A stretch of 64,000 nt of DNA, taken from assembly GCF_017309585.1 (NCBI RefSeq), contig NZ_CP071321.1, forward strand, positions 156,335-220,334, in the 5' to 3' direction. The position numbers and the translations under genes were made by a program. This DNA is from Nitrogeniibacter aestuarii (GTDB lineage: Bacteria; Pseudomonadota; Gammaproteobacteria; Burkholderiales; Rhodocyclaceae). A model generated the notes under the pieces. It was given only the letters and a program-made list of their open reading frames with translations, made no database searches and was not told the DNA's origin. Below are positions 3,901-35,948 of the stretch, one piece after another (the stretch's first letter is position 1; each line of letters opens with the position of its first letter).

Positions 3901-4209
3901 TCAGCTGCTTTCAAGACTGGCGAGAAAATGCTCGCGGGCGGATTCGAGCAGGTGAAGCTGCTCGACGGCGACCAGCCGGCGGGCGTGCTGATGGTAGAGG
4001 TCGAGCGCGGTGATGACATCGGCCAGGGCGACCGTGTCTGTCGGTGGTGCAACCGCCTGAGTGGCACCACCCACCGGTTTGAGGGTGGCGTGCTTGGGCA
4101 CGAACACGGTGCCGCCCTTTTCGGTGTTGGCGGTCATCGGACCGATCTTGGTGAAGACCTTGCCCTGCCATTCAAACTGCGCGCCGATGGGGAGGAGATG
4201 GATTTTCAT
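3901..4209 (-). CDS. hypothetical protein (102 aa)
   Basis: ORF on the minus strand. The start (MKIH at 4209) was chosen because the longer ORF would overlap the DUF2905 gene. No recognisable motifs. Confidence 0.45.
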   Translation of the reverse strand: MKIHLLPIGAQFEWQGKVFTKIGPMTANTEKGGTVFVPKHATLKPVGGATQAVAPPTDTVALADVITALDLYHQHARRLVAVEQLHLLESAREHFLASLESS

Positions 4210-28822: not shown

Positions 28823-30469
28823 TCACGGCGTCTGCCCGGTGTTTGCGGGGCCTTGAGCGATGTCGGACCAGGCCAGCTCGAACTTCGCCAGATACTTGCG
28901 CAGGCGGTCGGCGTCGTTGACCACCTTCCGCTCGGTGCGCGAGATGTCGAACAGCTGTCGGCCGGCCTCCGACAGGCTCTTGCAGCGACGGCATTCGGCC
29001 ACTACTGCGGCCAGTTGAAGCCGGTCGAAACGATCGAGCGCATCGAGCCGATCCCCCAGCAGGGCGCGCAGACCGGCGGCGTCCGTCTCGCCGGCCTCCA
29101 CCGCCCACGCGTGTCTGAGGCGCTCGATTTCCTCTGCCACAATCGCCTCGTTGATCCGCCCGGCATCCGCCAGGGTCGCCATACGCGTGACCGAGGCCGA
29201 CAGCTCGCGAAAGTTGCCGCTCCAGCGCGCCTCGGGCGAGGTGGCAAAGCGCAGCCAGGCGCGTTTGGCCTCCACGTTGAAGCGCACTGCCTTGCCCAGT
29301 TCGCGGGCATGGCGCTCGAGTTCGAAATCCAGGTTGGGTTCGATGTCCTCGACCCGTTCGGCCAGGCCCGGCAGGGGGAAGGTCCACAGGTTGATCCGGG
29401 CATAGAGGTCTTCGCGGAATTTGCCCTCGCGCACCCATTGGCGCAGGTCGCGGTGGGTGCCGGCGATGAGCATGAAGTCGCTGCTCACCTCGGTGTCGCC
29501 GCCAAAGGGAAAGAAGTGCTTCTCTTCAATCGCCTTGAGCAGCATCGCCTGCTCGTCCAGGCCCAGCTCGCCGATTTCGTCCAGAAACAGCATGCCGTCG
29601 TGGGCCGCCCGCAGCAGGCCGGCGCGCTCGGTCTGCGCACCGGTAAAAGCCCCCTTCACATGGCCGAACAGGGCCGACATGGCCATGTCGCCGCGCAGGG
29701 TGGCGCAGTTCACCTCAACAAATCGCCCCTTCACCTGGTGACGGCGCTGGCGCAGTTCGAAAATGCGTCGTGCCAGAAAGCTCTTGCCCGCGCCGGTGGG
29801 CCCTACCAGCAGCACCGGCGCGGTGGAGCGCACCGCCACCTTCTCGATCTGCTCGATGGTGCGGTTGAAGGTGGCGTTGCGGGTGGCGATACCGCTCTTG
29901 AGGAAAGAGACGGTCTCCTCCGCCTCGCGGGCAAAGCGGGTGGCAATGGCGTCGTAGCGGGACAGATCCAGATCGATGACGGTGTGGGTGCCGCGCACGT
30001 CGCGGGGTTCGCCTTCGTTGGCCTCAGTGCGGCGCTTGCGCGGTGGCGCGGTCTGAAGCAGCCGCGCGGGCAGATAGTGCGCCTCGGTGAGCAGAAACCA
30101 GCAGATCTGCGCCACATGGGTGCCGGTGGTGATGTGGACGAGGTAGTCCTCGGCCTCGGTGTCGAAGGCATAGCCACGGGCGAAATCGTGCAGCGCGCCG
30201 TAAACCTCGCCGAAGTCCCACGGGTCGCGCAGCTCGATCTCCACCGAGCGCACCTCCGTCGCGGGCGACACCTCGGCAATGTCGAGCTTCACCTTGCTGG
30301 CCAGCCCCCGATTGCGGGCGTCGTGGATCAACTCGAGCCGATGCACCGGCAGGCCGTCCTGCTGGCACAGCCCCACCGTGGGTCGCCATTTCTGCCAGCG
30401 TTGCTGCCCCCGGCCACCGTAGTCGAGCACGGTGCCGAGAAAGCCGATCACGACGTTCTTGCGGTTCAT
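28823..30469 (-). CDS. rtcR: RtcR, sigma54-dependent transcriptional activator with N-terminal CARF domain
   Basis: N-terminal MNRKNVVIGFLGTVLDYGG (CARF-type). AAA+ sigma54 interaction module with Walker A GPTGAGKS and GAFTGA motif (HVKGAFTGA). C-terminal HTH. Divergent from an rtcB-containing operon. Confidence 0.85.
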   Translation of the reverse strand: MNRKNVVIGFLGTVLDYGGRGQQRWQKWRPTVGLCQQDGLPVHRLELIHDARNRGLASKVKLDIAEVSPATEVRSVEIELRDPWDFGEVYGALHDFARGYAFDTEAEDYLVHITTGTHVAQICWFLLTEAHYLPARLLQTAPPRKRRTEANEGEPRDVRGTHTVIDLDLSRYDAIATRFAREAEETVSFLKSGIATRNATFNRTIEQIEKVAVRSTAPVLLVGPTGAGKSFLARRIFELRQRRHQVKGRFVEVNCATLRGDMAMSALFGHVKGAFTGAQTERAGLLRAAHDGMLFLDEIGELGLDEQAMLLKAIEEKHFFPFGGDTEVSSDFMLIAGTHRDLRQWVREGKFREDLYARINLWTFPLPGLAERVEDIEPNLDFELERHARELGKAVRFNVEAKRAWLRFATSPEARWSGNFRELSASVTRMATLADAGRINEAIVAEEIERLRHAWAVEAGETDAAGLRALLGDRLDALDRFDRLQLAAVVAECRRCKSLSEAGRQLFDISRTERKVVNDADRLRKYLAKFELAWSDIAQGPANTGQTP

Positions 30470-30805
30470 GAGTTTCGCCAGAAAGATAAAAAACTAGCCA
30501 TTTGTATCTGATTTTAGCGACCGTGTTAAGCGCGTACATGACGAATGGCAATGCCGATAAAAAATTTTGTCTATTGAAAACATGAGTTTGCGATCTTTTT
30601 GAATCCTCTGTCGTATTTCTGGCACGCCCTTCGCAGTACAGAGATCAACCGCGGAATCACCGCTGGAGTACGGGTTGAGGTTCTGGATGCCTCGCCGGTG
30701 CGCTCCCGCCGGATGACGTTGTGTGGGGCGTATGCCGCCTCGGTGAAGAAACGGTGTGCTGGATGCGTGTTGGTACGTTGATTCAGGTTCGACTCCTGAC
30801 ATCCC

Positions 30806-30880
30806 CGTTCGGTAGCTCATTTGGATAGAGCAGCAGATTTCGATCTGTTGGTGGCGGGTTCGAATCCCGCTCGAACACCA
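30806..30880 (+). ncRNA. tRNA-like element (tRNA mimic or degenerate tRNA) with 3' CCA
   Basis: Canonical D-arm (TA-GCTC-ATTTGGATA-GAGC). Canonical T-arm (GCGGG-TTCGAAT-CCCGC). 6-7 bp acceptor pairing (CGTTCGG / TCGAACA) followed by encoded CCA. The anticodon arm is aberrant: CAGAT-TTCG-ATCTG with a UUCG-type tetraloop, or a 6-nt loop. Confidence 0.5.
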
Positions 30881-31126
30881 GCCTGATTAGCTGGCATTTA
30901 TTTCAAGCAGTACCCGCCGGTTGTGGCGGAAAGGGCGGCGGCCCACGCGGCCAACGCCCCGCCCGCCACCGCCGTGCCGGCCGGCCCTTGTGGCTCGCCA
31001 CGGGCAGCGATGGCAACACCTGACGGGTTGGAGGGCGCTTCGGTGACTTCCACTGCCCAAAGGCCTTGCCCCCGCACCCCGAGGCGCCCCGCAGGCGGCC
31101 CGCCGGCACGGCGACAGACTGGTAGA

Positions 31127-31390
31127 GGGGTCATCCCTCGCCATTCGCTGGATCGCGTTGTGCTCATGGCGCTTCGCTGGAACATCTTGAGGCTCGTCGC
31201 ATTGTGCGCATCTGCCTTTTGGAGGGATTCGCAGTAGCCATGAGCACAACCCTGCGGGCTCACCCCTGCTGGGCTCCATGGCCGCGTTGCGACTCCTTGA
31301 CTGGGGGCCACCCAGTCTGCGTCCCCGCGCCTTGCCCTGCAGCCCAGCAGGAGTGATCGCGCCAACGAATGGCGAGGGATGACCCCTCCC
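31127..31390. ncRNA. Candidate long-stem structured RNA (Y-RNA-like architecture) between rtcR and the band-7 gene
   Basis: 23-bp perfect inverted repeat: GAGGGGTCATCCCTCGCCATTCG at 31127-31149 and CGAATGGCGAGGGATGACCCCTC at 31368-31390. Extended by GATCGCG/CGCGATC. Internal hairpin GTGCTCATGGC...GCCATGAGCAC. No convincing ORF. Confidence 0.35.
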
Positions 31391-31426: not shown

Positions 31427-32575
31427 ATGAACATGTTGTGGAAGCGATTCGTGGTGAACCAGACCCAGCGCGCGCTGTTGCTGCGCGAGGGCAACTTCGA
31501 GCGTGTGCTCGAGCCGGGTGTGCATCGTGTGATGGACCCGTTCGACCGCTACGCCATCCAGTGCTGGAGCGTGCAGGCGCCGCACTTTGATCACCCGCTG
31601 GCTGAAACCCTGCGTCGTGAGCGGGGCGCGGTGATCGAACAGTACTTCGATGTGATGGACACCAATGAAGATCAGGTGGGCCTGCGCTTCGAGAACAAGA
31701 TGCTGGTCGAGATCGTGCCGCCGGGCGCCCGTCGCCTGTACTGGAAAGGCCCGGCCGAGGTGCGCTTCGAGGTGGTCGAGCTGGCCGAAGGCGCCGAGGT
31801 GCCGGCGCGTGTGGCGCGTCTGCTGAACCAGTCCAACCTGCGTAGCCGCGTGGTGACCGGGCTGGCCGGGGTGTTGAGCCTGCAAGTGCCGGCCTGGCAT
31901 CTGGGTGTGCTGAAGATCGACGGCAAGGTCGAGCGCCTGCTGGAGCCTGGTTTCGTGGCCTTCTGGCGCTTCAACCGCGAGGTGAGCGTCGAGCTGGTCG
32001 ATACCCGTCTGCAAACCTTGGAAGTGAGCGGGCAGGAGATCCTGACCCGCGACAAGGTCGGCCTGCGGGTGAACCTTGCCGCCACCTGGCGCTTTGCCGA
32101 CGTGCTGGCTGCGTTTGCCGCCACACCGAAGCCGGTGGAGCACCTGTACCGCGAACTGCAGTTCGGTTTGCGGGCGGCGGTGGGCACCCGGTCGCTCGAT
32201 GAGTTGCTGGAAAACAAGCAGCTCATCGACGAGGTGGTGAGCCAGCACCTGGCCCAGAAGCTGGCCGGGCAGGGCATCGAGGTGCATAGCGTGGGCGTGC
32301 GGGACATCGTTCTGCCGGGCGAGATGAAGACGATTCTCGCCCAGGTGGTCGAGGCGGAGAAATCCGCCCAGGCGAACGTGATCCGTCGCCGCGAAGAAAC
32401 CGCCGCCACCCGCTCGCTGCTCAACACCGCCAAGGTGATGGAAGAGAACCCGACGGCCCTGCGCCTGAAGGAGCTCGAAACCCTGGAGCGTGTGGCCGAG
32501 CGTATCGACCGCATCTCGGTGTTCGGTGGCCTGGACCAGGTGCTGAACGGCCTGGTGAGCATCAAGTCCGGGTGA
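31427..32575 (+). CDS. SPFH/band-7 (stomatin/prohibitin-like) domain protein
   Basis: 382 aa from MNMLWKRF with RBS GGAGAATAAAAATG. Band-7 core. Characteristic C-terminal coiled-coil (IRRREETAATRSLLNTAKVMEENPTALRLKELETLERVAE). Confidence 0.8.
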   Translation: MNMLWKRFVVNQTQRALLLREGNFERVLEPGVHRVMDPFDRYAIQCWSVQAPHFDHPLAETLRRERGAVIEQYFDVMDTNEDQVGLRFENKMLVEIVPPGARRLYWKGPAEVRFEVVELAEGAEVPARVARLLNQSNLRSRVVTGLAGVLSLQVPAWHLGVLKIDGKVERLLEPGFVAFWRFNREVSVELVDTRLQTLEVSGQEILTRDKVGLRVNLAATWRFADVLAAFAATPKPVEHLYRELQFGLRAAVGTRSLDELLENKQLIDEVVSQHLAQKLAGQGIEVHSVGVRDIVLPGEMKTILAQVVEAEKSAQANVIRRREETAATRSLLNTAKVMEENPTALRLKELETLERVAERIDRISVFGGLDQVLNGLVSIKSG

Positions 32576-32654: not shown

Positions 32655-32865
32655 GGGGCTGAGCGCGAAATGGCGAGCGGCCGGAAATGATTGCCGATAC
32701 CGGTGAAGGGTAAAACCGAAGGCTTTGGAAACGGGCGGTATTTGAGGATGCAGCTGCGGGGTCTGCGTAAGGTTCCGTACGTGGCGCGCGTTTAAAGCAC
32801 TGTTTCGCACGGGTGTCATGCCCCGTGTCGGCCTATTGCGGGTTCGAGTCCCGCCAGCCCCGCCA
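32655..32865 (+). ncRNA. Candidate structured RNA with tRNA/tmRNA-like terminal module
   Basis: 5' GGGGCTG pairs with 3' CAGCCCC, which is followed by discriminator G and CCA. Perfect T-arm GCGGG-TTCGAGT-CCCGC sits immediately before the 3' acceptor strand. Internal hairpins (CACGGG...CCCGTG; CCGG...CCGG). No tmRNA tag ORF. ~211 nt. Confidence 0.45.
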
Positions 32866-32913: not shown

Positions 32914-33321
32914 ATGAAAAGCAACAAACAACGCCGCGCCGAAATCATGGCGGCCCGACGCCAGCGCAAGCGGCTGCGGACGGTGGCGACTCAACTCGAG
33001 CAGCGCCGCGTGCCGCTCGCGGCCAACGCCCTGCCGGTGGACGCGGCCGCGCTGATGCCCACCAACAGTTACGGCGCACCCGTGTGGCAGACGCGCGGTT
33101 TCTATCTGGACCTTGCCTTCACCTGCAAGGACTGCGGTGCCGAGTGCCTGTGGACGGCGCAGCGACAGAAGTGGTGGTATGAAGTGGCCAAGGGCCACCC
33201 CGATTCCACCGCCGTGCGATGCAAACCCTGCCGCGCCAAAGAGCGCGCCAGAAAAGAGACGGCCCGCCGTGTGGCGCTGGCCGGTCTGCAAAAGAAAATG
33301 GAAGCAAAGGAACACCCATGA
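32914..33321 (+). CDS. zinc-ribbon domain protein (135 aa), translationally coupled to rtcB
   Basis: CKDCGAEC...RCKPCRA four-Cys ribbon. Basic N-terminus. Stop overlaps the rtcB ATG (ATGA). Possible weak sigma54-like GG-N10-GC element (AGGGGAAAACGTTGCC) about 20 nt upstream. Confidence 0.6.
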   Translation: MKSNKQRRAEIMAARRQRKRLRTVATQLEQRRVPLAANALPVDAAALMPTNSYGAPVWQTRGFYLDLAFTCKDCGAECLWTAQRQKWWYEVAKGHPDSTAVRCKPCRAKERARKETARRVALAGLQKKMEAKEHP

Positions 33322-34553
33322 AGATCGAACAACAACACGATCACGACATCCTGCACGCGGGACAGGGCGCGCCCATCAAGCTGTGGACCCACGGCGTGCC
33401 GGTCGAAGACGATGCCCGCCAGCAACTCATCAACACCGCGCAGATGCCCTTCATCTACAAGCATCTGGCCGTGATGCCGGATGTGCATCTGGGCAAGGGC
33501 TCGACCATCGGCAGCGTGATCCCCACCCGTGGCGCCATCATCCCGGCGGCCGTCGGTGTGGATATCGGCTGCGGCATGATGGCCGCCCGCACCACGCTCA
33601 CCGCGGCCGACCTGCCGGACAACCTGCACGGCCTGCGCACCGCCATCGAAAAGGCCGTGCCGCACGGGCGCAACATGACCCGAGGCAAGCGCGACCAGGG
33701 GAGCTGGGGTCGCCCGCCCGAGCTGGTGGATGCTTACTGGAAGGCGCTGCTGCCGGGCTTCAACCGCATTACCGAAAAGGCGCCGCGTTTGAAGAACACC
33801 AACAACCATAACCATTTGGGGACGCTCGGTACGGGCAACCACTTCATCGAAGTGTGCCTGGATGAGGCCGAGCGCGTGTGGATCATGCTGCATTCGGGTT
33901 CGCGCGGTGTGGGCAACGCCATCGGCCGCCACTACATCGAACTGGCCCAGGCCGACATGCGCCAGCACATCGCCAATCTGCCGGACCGCGACCTCGCCTA
34001 CTTCGAAGAAGGCTCGCAGCACTTCGACGACTATGTCGAGGCCGTGGGCTGGGCGCAGGACTACGCCCGCAAGAACCGCGAAGTGATGATGCAGCACGTG
34101 ATCGCCGCCACCCGTACCGTGATCGAAAAGCCCTTCCAGGCGGATGTGGAGGCGGTGAACTGCCACCACAACTACGTGCAGCGCGAAACCCACTTCGGGC
34201 ACAAGGTGCTGGTGACGCGAAAAGGCGCTGTGTCCGCCCAGAAAGGCCAGCTCGGCATCATCCCCGGCTCCATGGGCGCACGCAGCTACATCGTGCGCGG
34301 CAAGGGCAACCCGGAGAGCTTCTGCTCATGCAGCCACGGAGCAGGACGCACCATGAGCCGCAACGCCGCCAAGAAGCGTTTCTCGATCGAAGACCAGATT
34401 CGCGCGACCGAAGGCGTGGAATGCCGCAAGGATGCATCGGTGATTGACGAAATCCCGATGGCGTATAAGGATATCGACGCCGTCATGGCCGCGCAGGACG
34501 CGCTGGTGGAGGTGGTGCACACCTTGAAGCAGGTGGTGTGTGTGAAGGGGTGA
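33318..34553 (+). CDS. rtcB: RNA-splicing ligase RtcB (3'-phosphate/5'-hydroxyl RNA ligase)
   Basis: 411 aa. HLGKGSTIGSVIPT, GVDIGCGM, HNHLGTLGTGNHFIE, MLHSGSRGVGNAIG, NCHHNY and AHGAGR motifs of RtcB. Confidence 0.9.
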   Translation: MKIEQQHDHDILHAGQGAPIKLWTHGVPVEDDARQQLINTAQMPFIYKHLAVMPDVHLGKGSTIGSVIPTRGAIIPAAVGVDIGCGMMAARTTLTAADLPDNLHGLRTAIEKAVPHGRNMTRGKRDQGSWGRPPELVDAYWKALLPGFNRITEKAPRLKNTNNHNHLGTLGTGNHFIEVCLDEAERVWIMLHSGSRGVGNAIGRHYIELAQADMRQHIANLPDRDLAYFEEGSQHFDDYVEAVGWAQDYARKNREVMMQHVIAATRTVIEKPFQADVEAVNCHHNYVQRETHFGHKVLVTRKGAVSAQKGQLGIIPGSMGARSYIVRGKGNPESFCSCSHGAGRTMSRNAAKKRFSIEDQIRATEGVECRKDASVIDEIPMAYKDIDAVMAAQDALVEVVHTLKQVVCVKG

Positions 34554-34583: not shown

Positions 34584-35948
34584 ATGGATAATCTGAATTA
34601 TTCCGAATCTGATTTTGGTGAAAGGTTAAACAAAGTACTTTCAGCGTCAAAGCCGATAAACAGCATTGAATTTTTAAAAGGTAGAGATAGAGAGCTAGAA
34701 ACCATAAAACGCGCTCTATACGCTGACGGGAGGCACGTTTTTATCTTCGGAGATCGAGGTGTCGGGAAGAGTTCACTGGGCCAAACTGCTGCGATCGCAT
34801 ACCAAAGTTCGGATGCAGAACCAATCTTCGTTTCGGGGTCACCTGACGATTCATTCTCATCCATAGTGGCCAACATAGTGGCGCGAGCGATTAGCAAGCC
34901 GCGTACGAAAAGCGTAAAAAATTCGAAAAAAATTTCGCTTTCTTTTAGAGGTCTTTCGATTGGTGAAGGGGAAGATGTCAGCCCAATCGATATCGAATCT
35001 AACATCCAAACAATTGGTGATGCTGTTGAACTGCTCAGGCAGGCTGGAAAAGAGCACTCAGCTAAGCCTATCATTGTAATTGACGAGTTTGATACGATTT
35101 CCAGTCTCGATGAGAGAAACAAGTTCTCATATCTTCTCAAGCAGTTGGGAGATCAAGCAGTAAACATCAAATTCATTTTTACTGGAATTGCTCGGTCTCT
35201 AGATGAATTATTAGGAGTGCATCAATCGGCGTATCGGCAACTCGAGACAGTTGAACTGCCTCGCCTTGGCTGGGACGCTCGCCGCGAAATCGTAACTTCA
35301 ACTGCGGCTGCATTCAATATCACTGTGGATAACGATGTAAATTGGCGCATATGTATGGTGAGCGATGGGTATCCATACTACATACATCTTGTGTTGGAAA
35401 AGATTTTATGGGCAGCTTACATTCTAGAGCCTGATATCTCGGAGATTGGATGGGATTTGTTTCATGAAGGTTTGCACGAAGCCATTTTGGCAACAAGTGC
35501 AGAGTTGAAGCGGCCTTACGAAAAAGCGGTATTGCACAGAGAAGAATCATACGAAGATGTTGTATGGGCAACCGCTGATCATGACGATTTAATGAGGTCG
35601 TTGAATGATATGTATGAATCGTACAGATTGGTTGTAGAAAAAAGGAATGATGCGCGCGAAGTTTTAGACCGGGGGAGATTTTCCGCGCTGGTGCGTAAGC
35701 TCAAAGACGCAAGCTACGGTTCTGTACTTACAAGTGTTGAGTCGCGTAAAGGCTGGTATTCCTACAGAGAAAAAATGCTACGCGGATTCGTTCGAATGCA
35801 AGCGCACGTTAACGGTGTCGAGTTGACTGGTGATCGACCAACGCCGAGACAGACGCAGCACGTTGGGAACGCGCGAAAGGGTTACAAAGGCGCAGCTTTG
35901 CCGCGCGGTGTTCGCCAGCGTTCAAAAATCGGAAGTTGGGACGATTGA
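34584..35948 (+). CDS. P-loop NTPase of the AAA_16/Arch_ATPase (ORC/Cdc6-like) type, encoded on a low-GC island
   Basis: Walker A (FIFGDRGVGKSSL) preceded by LKGRDRELETIKRAL. Walker B (PIIVIDEFD). 454 aa. Codon and GC content sharply lower than the flanks (AT-rich from 34555 to ~36540). Confidence 0.8.
   Translation: MDNLNYSESDFGERLNKVLSASKPINSIEFLKGRDRELETIKRALYADGRHVFIFGDRGVGKSSLGQTAAIAYQSSDAEPIFVSGSPDDSFSSIVANIVARAISKPRTKSVKNSKKISLSFRGLSIGEGEDVSPIDIESNIQTIGDAVELLRQAGKEHSAKPIIVIDEFDTISSLDERNKFSYLLKQLGDQAVNIKFIFTGIARSLDELLGVHQSAYRQLETVELPRLGWDARREIVTSTAAAFNITVDNDVNWRICMVSDGYPYYIHLVLEKILWAAYILEPDISEIGWDLFHEGLHEAILATSAELKRPYEKAVLHREESYEDVVWATADHDDLMRSLNDMYESYRLVVEKRNDAREVLDRGRFSALVRKLKDASYGSVLTSVESRKGWYSYREKMLRGFVRMQAHVNGVELTGDRPTPRQTQHVGNARKGYKGAALPRGVRQRSKIGSWDD

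Follow-up and report, generated by a model that had tools for sequence, protein, structure and literature searches.

An anticodon-less tRNA mimic in the leader of a Band-7-type RNA-repair operon of Nitrogeniibacter aestuarii

We analysed a stretch of 64,000 nucleotides from contig NZ_CP071321.1 of Nitrogeniibacter aestuarii (the window; positions count from its first letter) and found that positions 30806-30880 hold a real tRNA-shaped RNA that cannot decode, with a likeness to tRNA far beyond chance. We are highly confident that this element, here called unit 2, is the second tRNA-like module of a non-coding leader of approximately 260 nt, which follows an RtcR-dependent sigma54 promoter and belongs to an rtc operon of the Band-7 type. 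The 75 nt to which an earlier note on this DNA had drawn attention make up just one part of this larger, conserved RNA. Comparative sequence analysis shows that unit 2 is a conserved, structured tRNA mimic, that the composite leader to which it belongs lies behind a sigma54 motif, and that it is exclusive to Band-7-type rtc operons. As to its role, we consider it somewhat probable (roughly 0.55) that it serves as a non-decoding, non-chargeable tRNA surrogate and RNA partner of the Band-7/RtcB module, made within the RtcR-controlled leader. Unit 2 is a member of the b7a-tRNA (Band-7-associated tRNA-like RNA) class predicted in 2016 by Burroughs and Aravind (Nucleic Acids Res 44:8525) and hence not new, an assignment set by its gene context and by a citing description of the class.

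ARAGORN reported a single tRNA-like gene in the window, at 30806-30879, and no further tRNA gene. The call was tRNA-???, with the isotype undetermined and a 2-nt 'anticodon' (tc), where the earlier note had expected no call or a pseudogene call. Searching the 64 kb with Rfam, the tRNA model RF00005 matched 30806-30878 (+) at 47.2 bits (gathering score 29, E=6e-7) and was the only family at or above its gathering score anywhere in the window. Both canonical arms noticed earlier, D and T, are present. The proposed 7-bp acceptor (CGTTCGG/TCGAACA) does form a helix, but one of 6 bp, with C30806 and A30877 unpaired with each other. For the hairpin at the anticodon position, the UUCG cap and the span of 16 nt were correctly described, but the string quoted for it had 14 nt and the stem has 6 bp including a G.U pair. 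This arm is only 1 nt short of a normal anticodon arm and consists of a 5-bp stem with the 6-nt loop UUUCGA, in which a U-A pair closes the loop to a UUCG tetraloop. De novo folding of the 89 nt that make up the cloverleaf and the trailing hairpin returned exactly the expected structure, the minimum free energy fold being equal to the centroid (-31.9 kcal/mol, z=-2.4, with 3 of 200 shuffles equally good). The nucleotides that build the tRNA L-shape are kept in the window copy (U8, A14, G19, G53-T54-T55-C56, A58 and C61). The idea of a tRNA-shaped RNA unable to decode is thus borne out by the sequence itself, by the ARAGORN and Rfam calls and by the tetraloop in place of an anticodon loop.

To collect relatives, we used an RtcR-based scan with one genome per species, which yielded 80 loci, the closest of them from Rhodocyclaceae metagenome-assembled genomes at 84-85% identity. 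Many of these loci carry one or two head-to-tail tRNA-like ARAGORN calls in a constant place, on the strand opposite to rtcR and 300-430 nt upstream of it. The 'anticodons' assigned to them follow no pattern or are malformed, with Ile, Val, His, Leu, Met, Arg, Ser and 'Stop' all represented beside many '???'. Thirty orthologous copies of unit 2 with its trailing hairpin, from Rhodocyclaceae, Burkholderia, Ralstonia, Thiobacillus, Chitiniphilus, Chitinibacter and Pseudomonas, were aligned (alignment A1). Standard pairs occupied 90.8% of the cells, compared with 34-45% when the partners were slid, and the covariation score was 0.321 against 0.137 after shuffling, with none of 500 shuffles reaching the observed value. 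Compensatory changes were seen in three helices, and the stem at the anticodon position showed double changes at all six of its pairs. Support from covariation in the acceptor is limited to the inner five pairs; pair 1-72 is unpaired in 23 of the 30 copies and pair 2-71 in 14 of them. Scored with a covariance model derived from this alignment, the window copy reached 91 bits and the remaining copies 62-102 bits; the same model recovered unit 1, the preceding tRNA-like module, of Pseudomonas leaders at 44-65 bits. G19, G53, T54, T55, C56, A58 and C61 are invariant in all copies, A14 is found in 29 and U8 in 26, and the D- and T-arm sequences do not vary across copies.

A census of the loop capping the anticodon-position stem gave 10 UNCG loops, 7 GNRA loops and about 7 loops of seven nt whose triplets are unrelated, all others having 3-5 nt, so that tetraloops of two families account for 17 of the 30. 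Very close relatives combine identical stems with different loops: UUCG in L069, and three different 7-mers in L021, L026 and L028. This variation indicates that the 'anticodon' loop is not constrained to decode, and it has repeatedly been turned into a hyperstable cap drawn from two tetraloop families. Of the UUCG hairpin for which conservation among relatives was to be checked, the stem is therefore retained, with covariation, but the loop varies, only 10 of 30 being UNCG. A canonical tRNA would have a 7-nt loop with an anticodon conserved among orthologues, and a 7-bp acceptor with a free discriminator base and CCA end; unit 2 has neither, its acceptor being of 5-6 bp. With a tetraloop for an anticodon loop, this short acceptor and a 3' end running into a hairpin, it cannot decode and almost certainly cannot be charged by aminoacylation, and it would present no anticodon loop to anticodon nucleases. 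The CCA that had been read as its end is there, at 30878-30880, but these are the first three bases of the trailing hairpin and most relatives have CTG (CUG) instead. Judged by this comparison, the CCA of the window is incidental.

The earlier note had offered a decayed tRNA gene or att-site remnant as the alternative, which would make the element a dead tRNA gene or the tRNA-derived half of an integration site, without function. An anticodon loop one nucleotide short and a mismatched first acceptor pair are what such a remnant could look like. A remnant would not be selectively maintained, however, and the element holds one position with respect to rtcR and Band-7 across two classes of proteobacteria, with compensatory stem changes, invariant arms and two tetraloop families on the same stem; in addition, the window has no other tRNA gene. 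The covariation also contradicts the idea that the copies spread recently and horizontally from one dead gene. Syntenic conservation and compensatory changes refute this alternative, which we regard as barely credible.

Gene content was then compared across the 74 informative loci, those with enough flank, which include the window and come from Beta- and Gammaproteobacteria. Unit 2 occurred together with Band-7 in 28 loci and never without it (0/74). Band-7 with a lost or degenerate unit 2 was found in 5 loci, Rsr/Ro60 instead in 25, and neither Band-7 nor Rsr in 16, and no locus combined Band-7 with Rsr (0/74). The tie to the rtcR/rtcB RNA-repair operon claimed earlier is accordingly confirmed and narrowed to Band-7-type loci. 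Searches with tblastn found Rsr in none of the 33 Band-7 loci and no Ro/Rsr gene in the 64-kb window. The open reading frames (ORFs) that fill the same slot in Rsr-type loci carried TROVE and Ro60-vWA domains in all four sampled, and Rfam scans of Rsr-type loci found YrlA above its gathering score in five of five, at 69-107 bits, with YrlB in addition at one of them (L036, 100.8 bits). This mutual exclusion indicates that Band-7 with the tRNA-like module and Ro with Y RNA are alternatives in one slot of similar RtcR/RtcB operons. Ro-type loci often have several Y RNA copies, for example two YrlA plus YrlB in L036 and two YrlA in L017. Extra covariance-model matches limited to the T arm lie between rsr and rtcB in L010, L017, L027, L030, L036, L037 and L041, which suggests that Ro-type loci hold arrays of T-arm-containing RNAs beyond those called by Rfam.

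The distribution also bears on whether the element could be a regulatory or defensive decoy, competing with damaged tRNAs for the RtcR CARF domain as a negative feedback, or absorbing tRNA-targeting ribotoxins. That 17 of the 30 copies have a nuclease-resistant tetraloop (UNCG or GNRA) for an anticodon loop would suit a decoy, as would production of the RNA from what we infer to be an RtcR-controlled promoter. However, RtcR is present in all 80 loci and the element only in those with Band-7, a distribution that an RtcR-directed role leaves unexplained, and about 7 of the 30 copies keep an ordinary 7-nt loop. We consider a decoy plausible, though quite unlikely.

A relation to Y RNAs had been proposed as well, in the form of a tRNA-mimicking, Y-RNA-like RNA beside a repair operon. 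The mimicry holds; membership of the YrlA family (RF02553) does not. In Rfam scans of the window and of five Pseudomonas loci, the YrlA match reaches 30.3 bits in the window and 41 bits in the tandem leaders of Pseudomonas, where the gathering score is 69, and it joins the T arm of unit 1 to the D arm of unit 2. Dimeric tRNAs yield YrlA false positives of exactly this geometry (Chen et al. 2014, PMC4201824). YrlA is a circularly permuted tRNA, with a T arm, a closed acceptor hairpin and a D arm, whose 5' and 3' ends form the Ro-binding stem, whereas unit 2 has the normal tRNA order, an open acceptor, the D arm before the T arm, and no Ro-binding terminal stem. YrlA adjoins Ro60/Rsr; unit 2 does so neither in the 64-kb window nor at any Band-7 locus. 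The sub-threshold score, the false-positive geometry, the different topology and the lack of an adjacent Ro gene together exclude membership.

The two RNAs nevertheless have much in common. Both are tRNA mimics without a free CCA, in an RtcR-controlled rtc operon; YrlA is L-shaped and unit 2 predicted to be so, and YrlA lacks an anticodon loop, as does unit 2 of the window. True YrlAs and unit 2 share the T arm GCGGG-TTCGAnn-CCCGY and the D arm TA-GCTC...GAGC, and one YrlA copy carries the T arm of Pseudomonas unit 1, GCAGG-TTCGAAT-CCTGC. According to Wang et al., the D- and T-stem nucleotides of YrlA are conserved and may be an interaction site (10.1101/312249). Could unit 2 then be a divergent YrlA-type Y RNA serving a Ro60/Rsr encoded elsewhere in the genome? 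Besides the matching arms and the sub-threshold hits, the secondary literature describes b7a-tRNA as occasionally adjoining Rsr (10.1101/312249). Weighed against this, the YrlAs of sister loci score 69-107 bits while the hits to Band-7-type leaders stay at 30-41 bits with the geometry of a tandem-tRNA artefact, the topology differs as described, and Rsr is absent from the window and from 33 of 33 Band-7 loci. This makes a divergent Y RNA very unlikely.

The aligned leaders have a common order of sigma54 motif, conserved domain of ~110 nt, unit 1, unit 2 and hairpin. At the level of the Band-7-type operon, this gives promoter, P2-P3 domain, T-arm minihelix, cloverleaf and hairpin, followed by the genes for the Band-7/SPFH protein, a Zn-finger protein and RtcB (table 1).

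Table 1. Features of the leader and the operon genes in the window.
Feature	Position	Strand	Description or basis
Putative sigma54-type -24/-12 promoter	30620..30635	+	TGGCACGCCCTTCGCA (GG-N10-GC); motif search and cross-locus alignment
Conserved 5' leader domain	30646..30755	+	P2, P3, junction and tentative closing helix
Hairpin P2	30669-30701	+	conserved 1x1 G.G internal loop, 1-nt bulge
Hairpin P3	30700-30731	+	long hairpin, conserved 2-nt 3' bulge
Conserved junction	30732-30739	+	AUGCCGCC; directly after P2/P3
tRNA-like unit 1, reduced	30761..30804	+	5-bp acceptor GGATG/CATCC, 17-nt connector with GG, T arm
Unit 1 T arm	30783-30799	+	TCAGG-TTCGACT-CCTGA
tRNA-like unit 2	30806..30877	+	ARAGORN, Rfam tRNA, covariation, own covariance model
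Unit 2 acceptor	30807-30812 with 30871-30876	+	6 bp including one G.U
Unit 2 D arm	30815-30831	+	GCTC-ATTTGGATA-GAGC
Unit 2 anticodon-position hairpin	30833-30848	+	G.U plus CAGAT/ATCTG, UUCG loop, 16 nt
Unit 2 T arm	30854-30870	+	GCGGG-TTCGAAT-CCCGC; preceded by 5-nt variable loop
Trailing hairpin	30878-30894	+	CCAGC-CTGATTA-GCTGG; abuts acceptor 3' strand; terminator-like scan
rtcR	28823..30469	-	sigma54-dependent activator, CARF-type N-terminal domain; divergent from leader
Band-7/SPFH (stomatin-like) gene	31427..32575	+	first coding gene of operon; ORF-finder start 31379
Small treble-clef zinc-finger protein gene	32914..33321	+	Pfam zf_Tbcl PF13451, 50.8 bits
rtcB RNA ligase gene	33318..34553	+	Pfam RtcB 438 bits; NCBIfam RtcB-family models
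STAND/AAA-type ATPase gene	34584-35948	+	follows rtcB, where many relatives have rtcA

From its consensus and the known biology of RtcR, we infer that TGGCACGCCCTTCGCA is the promoter, with a predicted transcription start at ~30646. In most loci the motif search placed the sigma54 element ~150 nt from the start of rtcR. Across the motifs of L001-L080 and the window, Band-7-type leaders mostly have TCGC as the -12 element, and Escherichia, Klebsiella and Ralstonia loci without such a leader mostly have TTGC; exceptions are L019, of the Band-7 type, with TTGC and L011, of the Ro type, with TCGC.

In the 5' domain, P2 follows the pattern CAC-G-GGC-N-GGGG...CCCC-GCC-G-GUG. P2 and P3 fold alike in ~35 loci despite divergent sequence, with many compensatory variants. 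These folds were obtained by anchored extraction and folding of each sequence, as RNAalifold on a plain MAFFT alignment caught only part of them, owing to length variation. A closing helix P1 (CACCG/CGGUG) is tentative, having been seen by eye only. Rfam returned no match for the 5' domain in the window or in the Pseudomonas leaders.

Unit 1 of the window lacks both a D stem and an anticodon arm. The same reduced form, an acceptor helix, a connector of 13-18 nt containing GG and a T arm, is found in Betaproteobacteria, where at least five contiguous acceptor pairs form in 20 of 20 copies with 15 different strand sequences. At least six pairs form in 85% of these reduced copies, compared with 21% in a swap control, an offset of 0-2 nt being permitted in test and control alike. 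In Pseudomonas, unit 1 is a full cloverleaf that scores 42-60 bits, above the Rfam tRNA threshold. Behind unit 2, four of the five pairs of the trailing hairpin covary in relatives. A T-rich tract (30895-30904) follows the hairpin in the window only; a general intrinsic terminator was ruled out because relatives have no U-run behind it.

The position of the tRNA-like units in the mRNA leader, head to tail and with zero spacer, raises the possibility of a cis-acting processing or stability module. RNase P and 3' nucleases would cut at the units and separate the 5' domain from the Band-7/rtcB mRNA, the cuts would set the 5' end and half-life of the mRNA, and the freed pieces would have no function, much as with mascRNA or mitochondrial tRNA punctuation. 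Conservation of the RNase P determinants (acceptor with T-arm minihelix, and elbow) next to a freely varying anticodon arm is what one would expect here, the units can be lost without loss of the operon, and the YrlA of Mycobacterium smegmatis is an RNase P substrate (PMC4201824). Yet a pure signal needs no invariant D- and T-stem sequences matching YrlA, and it does not explain why the units go exclusively with Band-7 and not with rtc operons in general. An acceptor of 5-6 bp abutted by a hairpin is moreover a poor canonical substrate for RNase P or RNase Z, and in Pseudomonas aeruginosa the RNA of the corresponding locus (PA4581.1) was measured by quantitative reverse transcription PCR at about half the level of a canonical tRNA, which suggests a stable product (PMC13637947). 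We consider a processing role plausible but unlikely.

The role we favour, that of a tRNA surrogate partnering Band-7 and RtcB, could work as follows. Damaged tRNA would activate RtcR, whose CARF domain recognises 5' tRNA halves that carry a terminal cyclic phosphate (PMC7790460), and the leader would be co-produced with Band-7 and RtcB. Its tRNA-like modules would adopt the L-shape, be recognised by tRNA-handling proteins and act as a stable, uncleavable tRNA surrogate and as the RNA partner of SPFH/Band-7 and RtcB. The sister operons suggest a parallel, in which YrlA or YrlB works with Ro60 and the RNA combines one part that binds protein with another, tRNA-like part that docks the effector. 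Because unit 2 and YrlA have the same D and T arms while their protein neighbours are mutually exclusive, the tRNA-like surface most likely docks a factor common to both operon types, such as RtcB or a housekeeping tRNA-binding factor. The 5' domain would be the better candidate for contact with Band-7.

Several points weigh against this interpretation. The leader as a whole is not thermodynamically distinctive (z=-0.25) in this GC-rich sequence, and only unit 2 stands out. In three loci of the Pseudomonas putida group (L032, L035 and L039) both tRNA-like units have been lost, whereas Band-7, RtcB, the 5' domain and the hairpin persist, so the tRNA-like modules are dispensable for Band-7/RtcB in some lineages and the 5' domain is more tightly linked to Band-7 than they are. 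In P. aeruginosa, the amount of PA4581.1 RNA stayed the same upon induction of Rtc proteins, a poor fit with simple co-induction (PMC13637947). The D and T arms shared with YrlA could stem from descent from one tRNA instead of a partner in common, and the identity with the published b7a-tRNA is drawn from a secondary citation and the defining gene context. RNA-protein contact, processing and transcript ends in this organism are proposals read from sequence. As a separate observation, the three P. putida-group loci also keep the sigma54 motif, and unrelated hairpins replace both units.

The genes around the leader are those of an RNA-repair operon. The rtcR product matches Pfam RtcR (282 bits) and Sigma54_activat as well as the NCBIfam equivalog RNA_repair_RtcR (843 bits, cutoff 650). 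The Band-7 protein matches Pfam Band_7 at 116 bits and stomatin homologues in the PDB down to E=7.5e-19. Its homologues align from residue 16-20 onward, and translation likely starts at ATG 31427, with GGAG upstream. The ORF-finder start at 31379 is spurious, as it lies inside an inserted repeat in the 5' untranslated region of Band-7. This insertion (~264 nt, 31125-31388) resembles a miniature inverted-repeat transposable element or a repetitive extragenic palindromic sequence, being bounded by 27-nt terminal inverted repeats (31125-31151 and 31362-31388) that are 96% complementary and containing nested palindromes, and it accounts for a spacer between leader and Band-7 of 476 nt, compared with about 170-270 nt in relatives. 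No convincing transmembrane segment was seen in the Band-7 protein (best Kyte-Doolittle mean 1.3), and Pfam, NCBIfam and PDB sequence searches found no RNA-binding domain in its N-terminal region. The stop codon of the zf_Tbcl gene overlaps the rtcB start (ATGA). As tblastn found this gene in ~16 Band-7 loci and in some Rsr/Ro-type loci such as L007, its product appears, from gene neighbourhood, to be a recurrent RtcB partner. The 64-kb window contains no rtcA.

A second conserved structured RNA of ~205 nt (32661-32865, +) is located directly upstream of rtcB, in the window between Band-7 and the zinc-finger ORF. Long blocks of it are invariant, it includes a perfect T arm (GCGGG-UUCGAGU-CCCGC, 32839-32855), and its 3' end reads CC(A/G)CCA. 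Further copies are in L013 (about 3925-4160, -), L025 (about 3975-4195, -) and L081-L087; 7 of the further copies came from a metagenome pattern scan, and all of these are in rtc loci beside rtcB. RNAalifold on eight sequences predicted 61 pairs, with compensatory changes at 18, and the RNA had no match in Rfam 15. One metagenomic locus (L087, Ga0316628_100025818) has a variant order in which rtcR is divergent from this RNA, followed by RtcB, with Band-7 further downstream; there, the ~205-nt RNA takes the promoter-proximal place of the b7a-type leader.

A broader scheme would make the leader a three-module analogue of Y RNA and recognise two undescribed RNA families, the P2-P3 domain (30646-30755), which perhaps binds SPFH/Band-7, and the rtcB-upstream RNA. 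The arms of YrlA and of the units would dock the same partner, RtcB or a tRNA-binding factor, and YrlA could have arisen by permutation of two such units in tandem, with unit 1 supplying the T arm and unit 2 the D arm. We put this forward as possible but doubtful.

Of the two alternatives in rtc operons, Ro with Y RNA has been studied, while Band-7 with a tRNA-like RNA has only been predicted. Our analysis gives the b7a class a concrete anatomy of promoter, 5' domain, minihelix, anticodon-less cloverleaf and hairpin. Tetraloop replacement, the strict alternation of Band-7 with Ro/YrlA and the shared D and T arms together point to a common docking partner. There is also a warning for annotation, since pipelines take b7a elements for tRNAs, as with tRNA-Arg4 in PAO1, or give them undetermined or pseudo status.

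Among known systems, the b7a-tRNA is the closest. The abstract of Burroughs and Aravind (2016) reportedly names modules of SPFH/Band-7 and 'a novel tRNA-like molecule' that correspond to Ro/TROVE and its Y RNAs. A literature search for b7a-tRNA returned one secondary mention only, which credits these authors with a predicted tRNA-like non-coding RNA beside Band-7 and RtcB and gives it as a proposed counterpart of Y RNA with Ro (10.1101/312249); a later paper by Burroughs and Aravind contributed nothing further. Unit 2 is recognised by tRNA detectors, adjoins Band-7 and RtcB on the same strand, and is homologous to elements in the same position. Gene context and tRNA-likeness thus match, and no defining difference emerged from comparison with this secondary description. 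The class has no family of its own in Rfam 15, being covered by the generic tRNA model only. Measured against the same description, what is left as novel is the anatomy of the leader with its unrecognised 5' domain, the replacement of the anticodon loop by a tetraloop, the arms identical to those of YrlA, and the rtcB-upstream RNA.

More distant parallels are the tRNA-like domain of tmRNA, the 3' tRNA-like structures of viruses and mascRNA, in all of which an acceptor/T-arm minihelix with an elbow is recognised by tRNA-handling enzymes. The tmRNA and the viral structures have a free CCA and are aminoacylated, and mascRNA is a eukaryotic processing product; to our knowledge, none of the three is tied to Band-7 or RtcB. 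The layout of the locus recurs in P. aeruginosa, with rtcR (PA4581), the SPFH gene (PA4582/PaFlo8) and rtcB (PA4583). There, PA4581.1, annotated as 'tRNA-Arg4', lies between rtcR and the rtc cluster, without CCA and with an unusual D loop (PMC13637947); in our set, unit 2 of the Pseudomonas locus L026 was likewise called Arg(acg) by ARAGORN. PA4581.1 keeps a 7-nt loop, which explains its annotation as a real tRNA, whereas the window copy, with a 6-nt loop that closes to UUCG, receives no isotype call.

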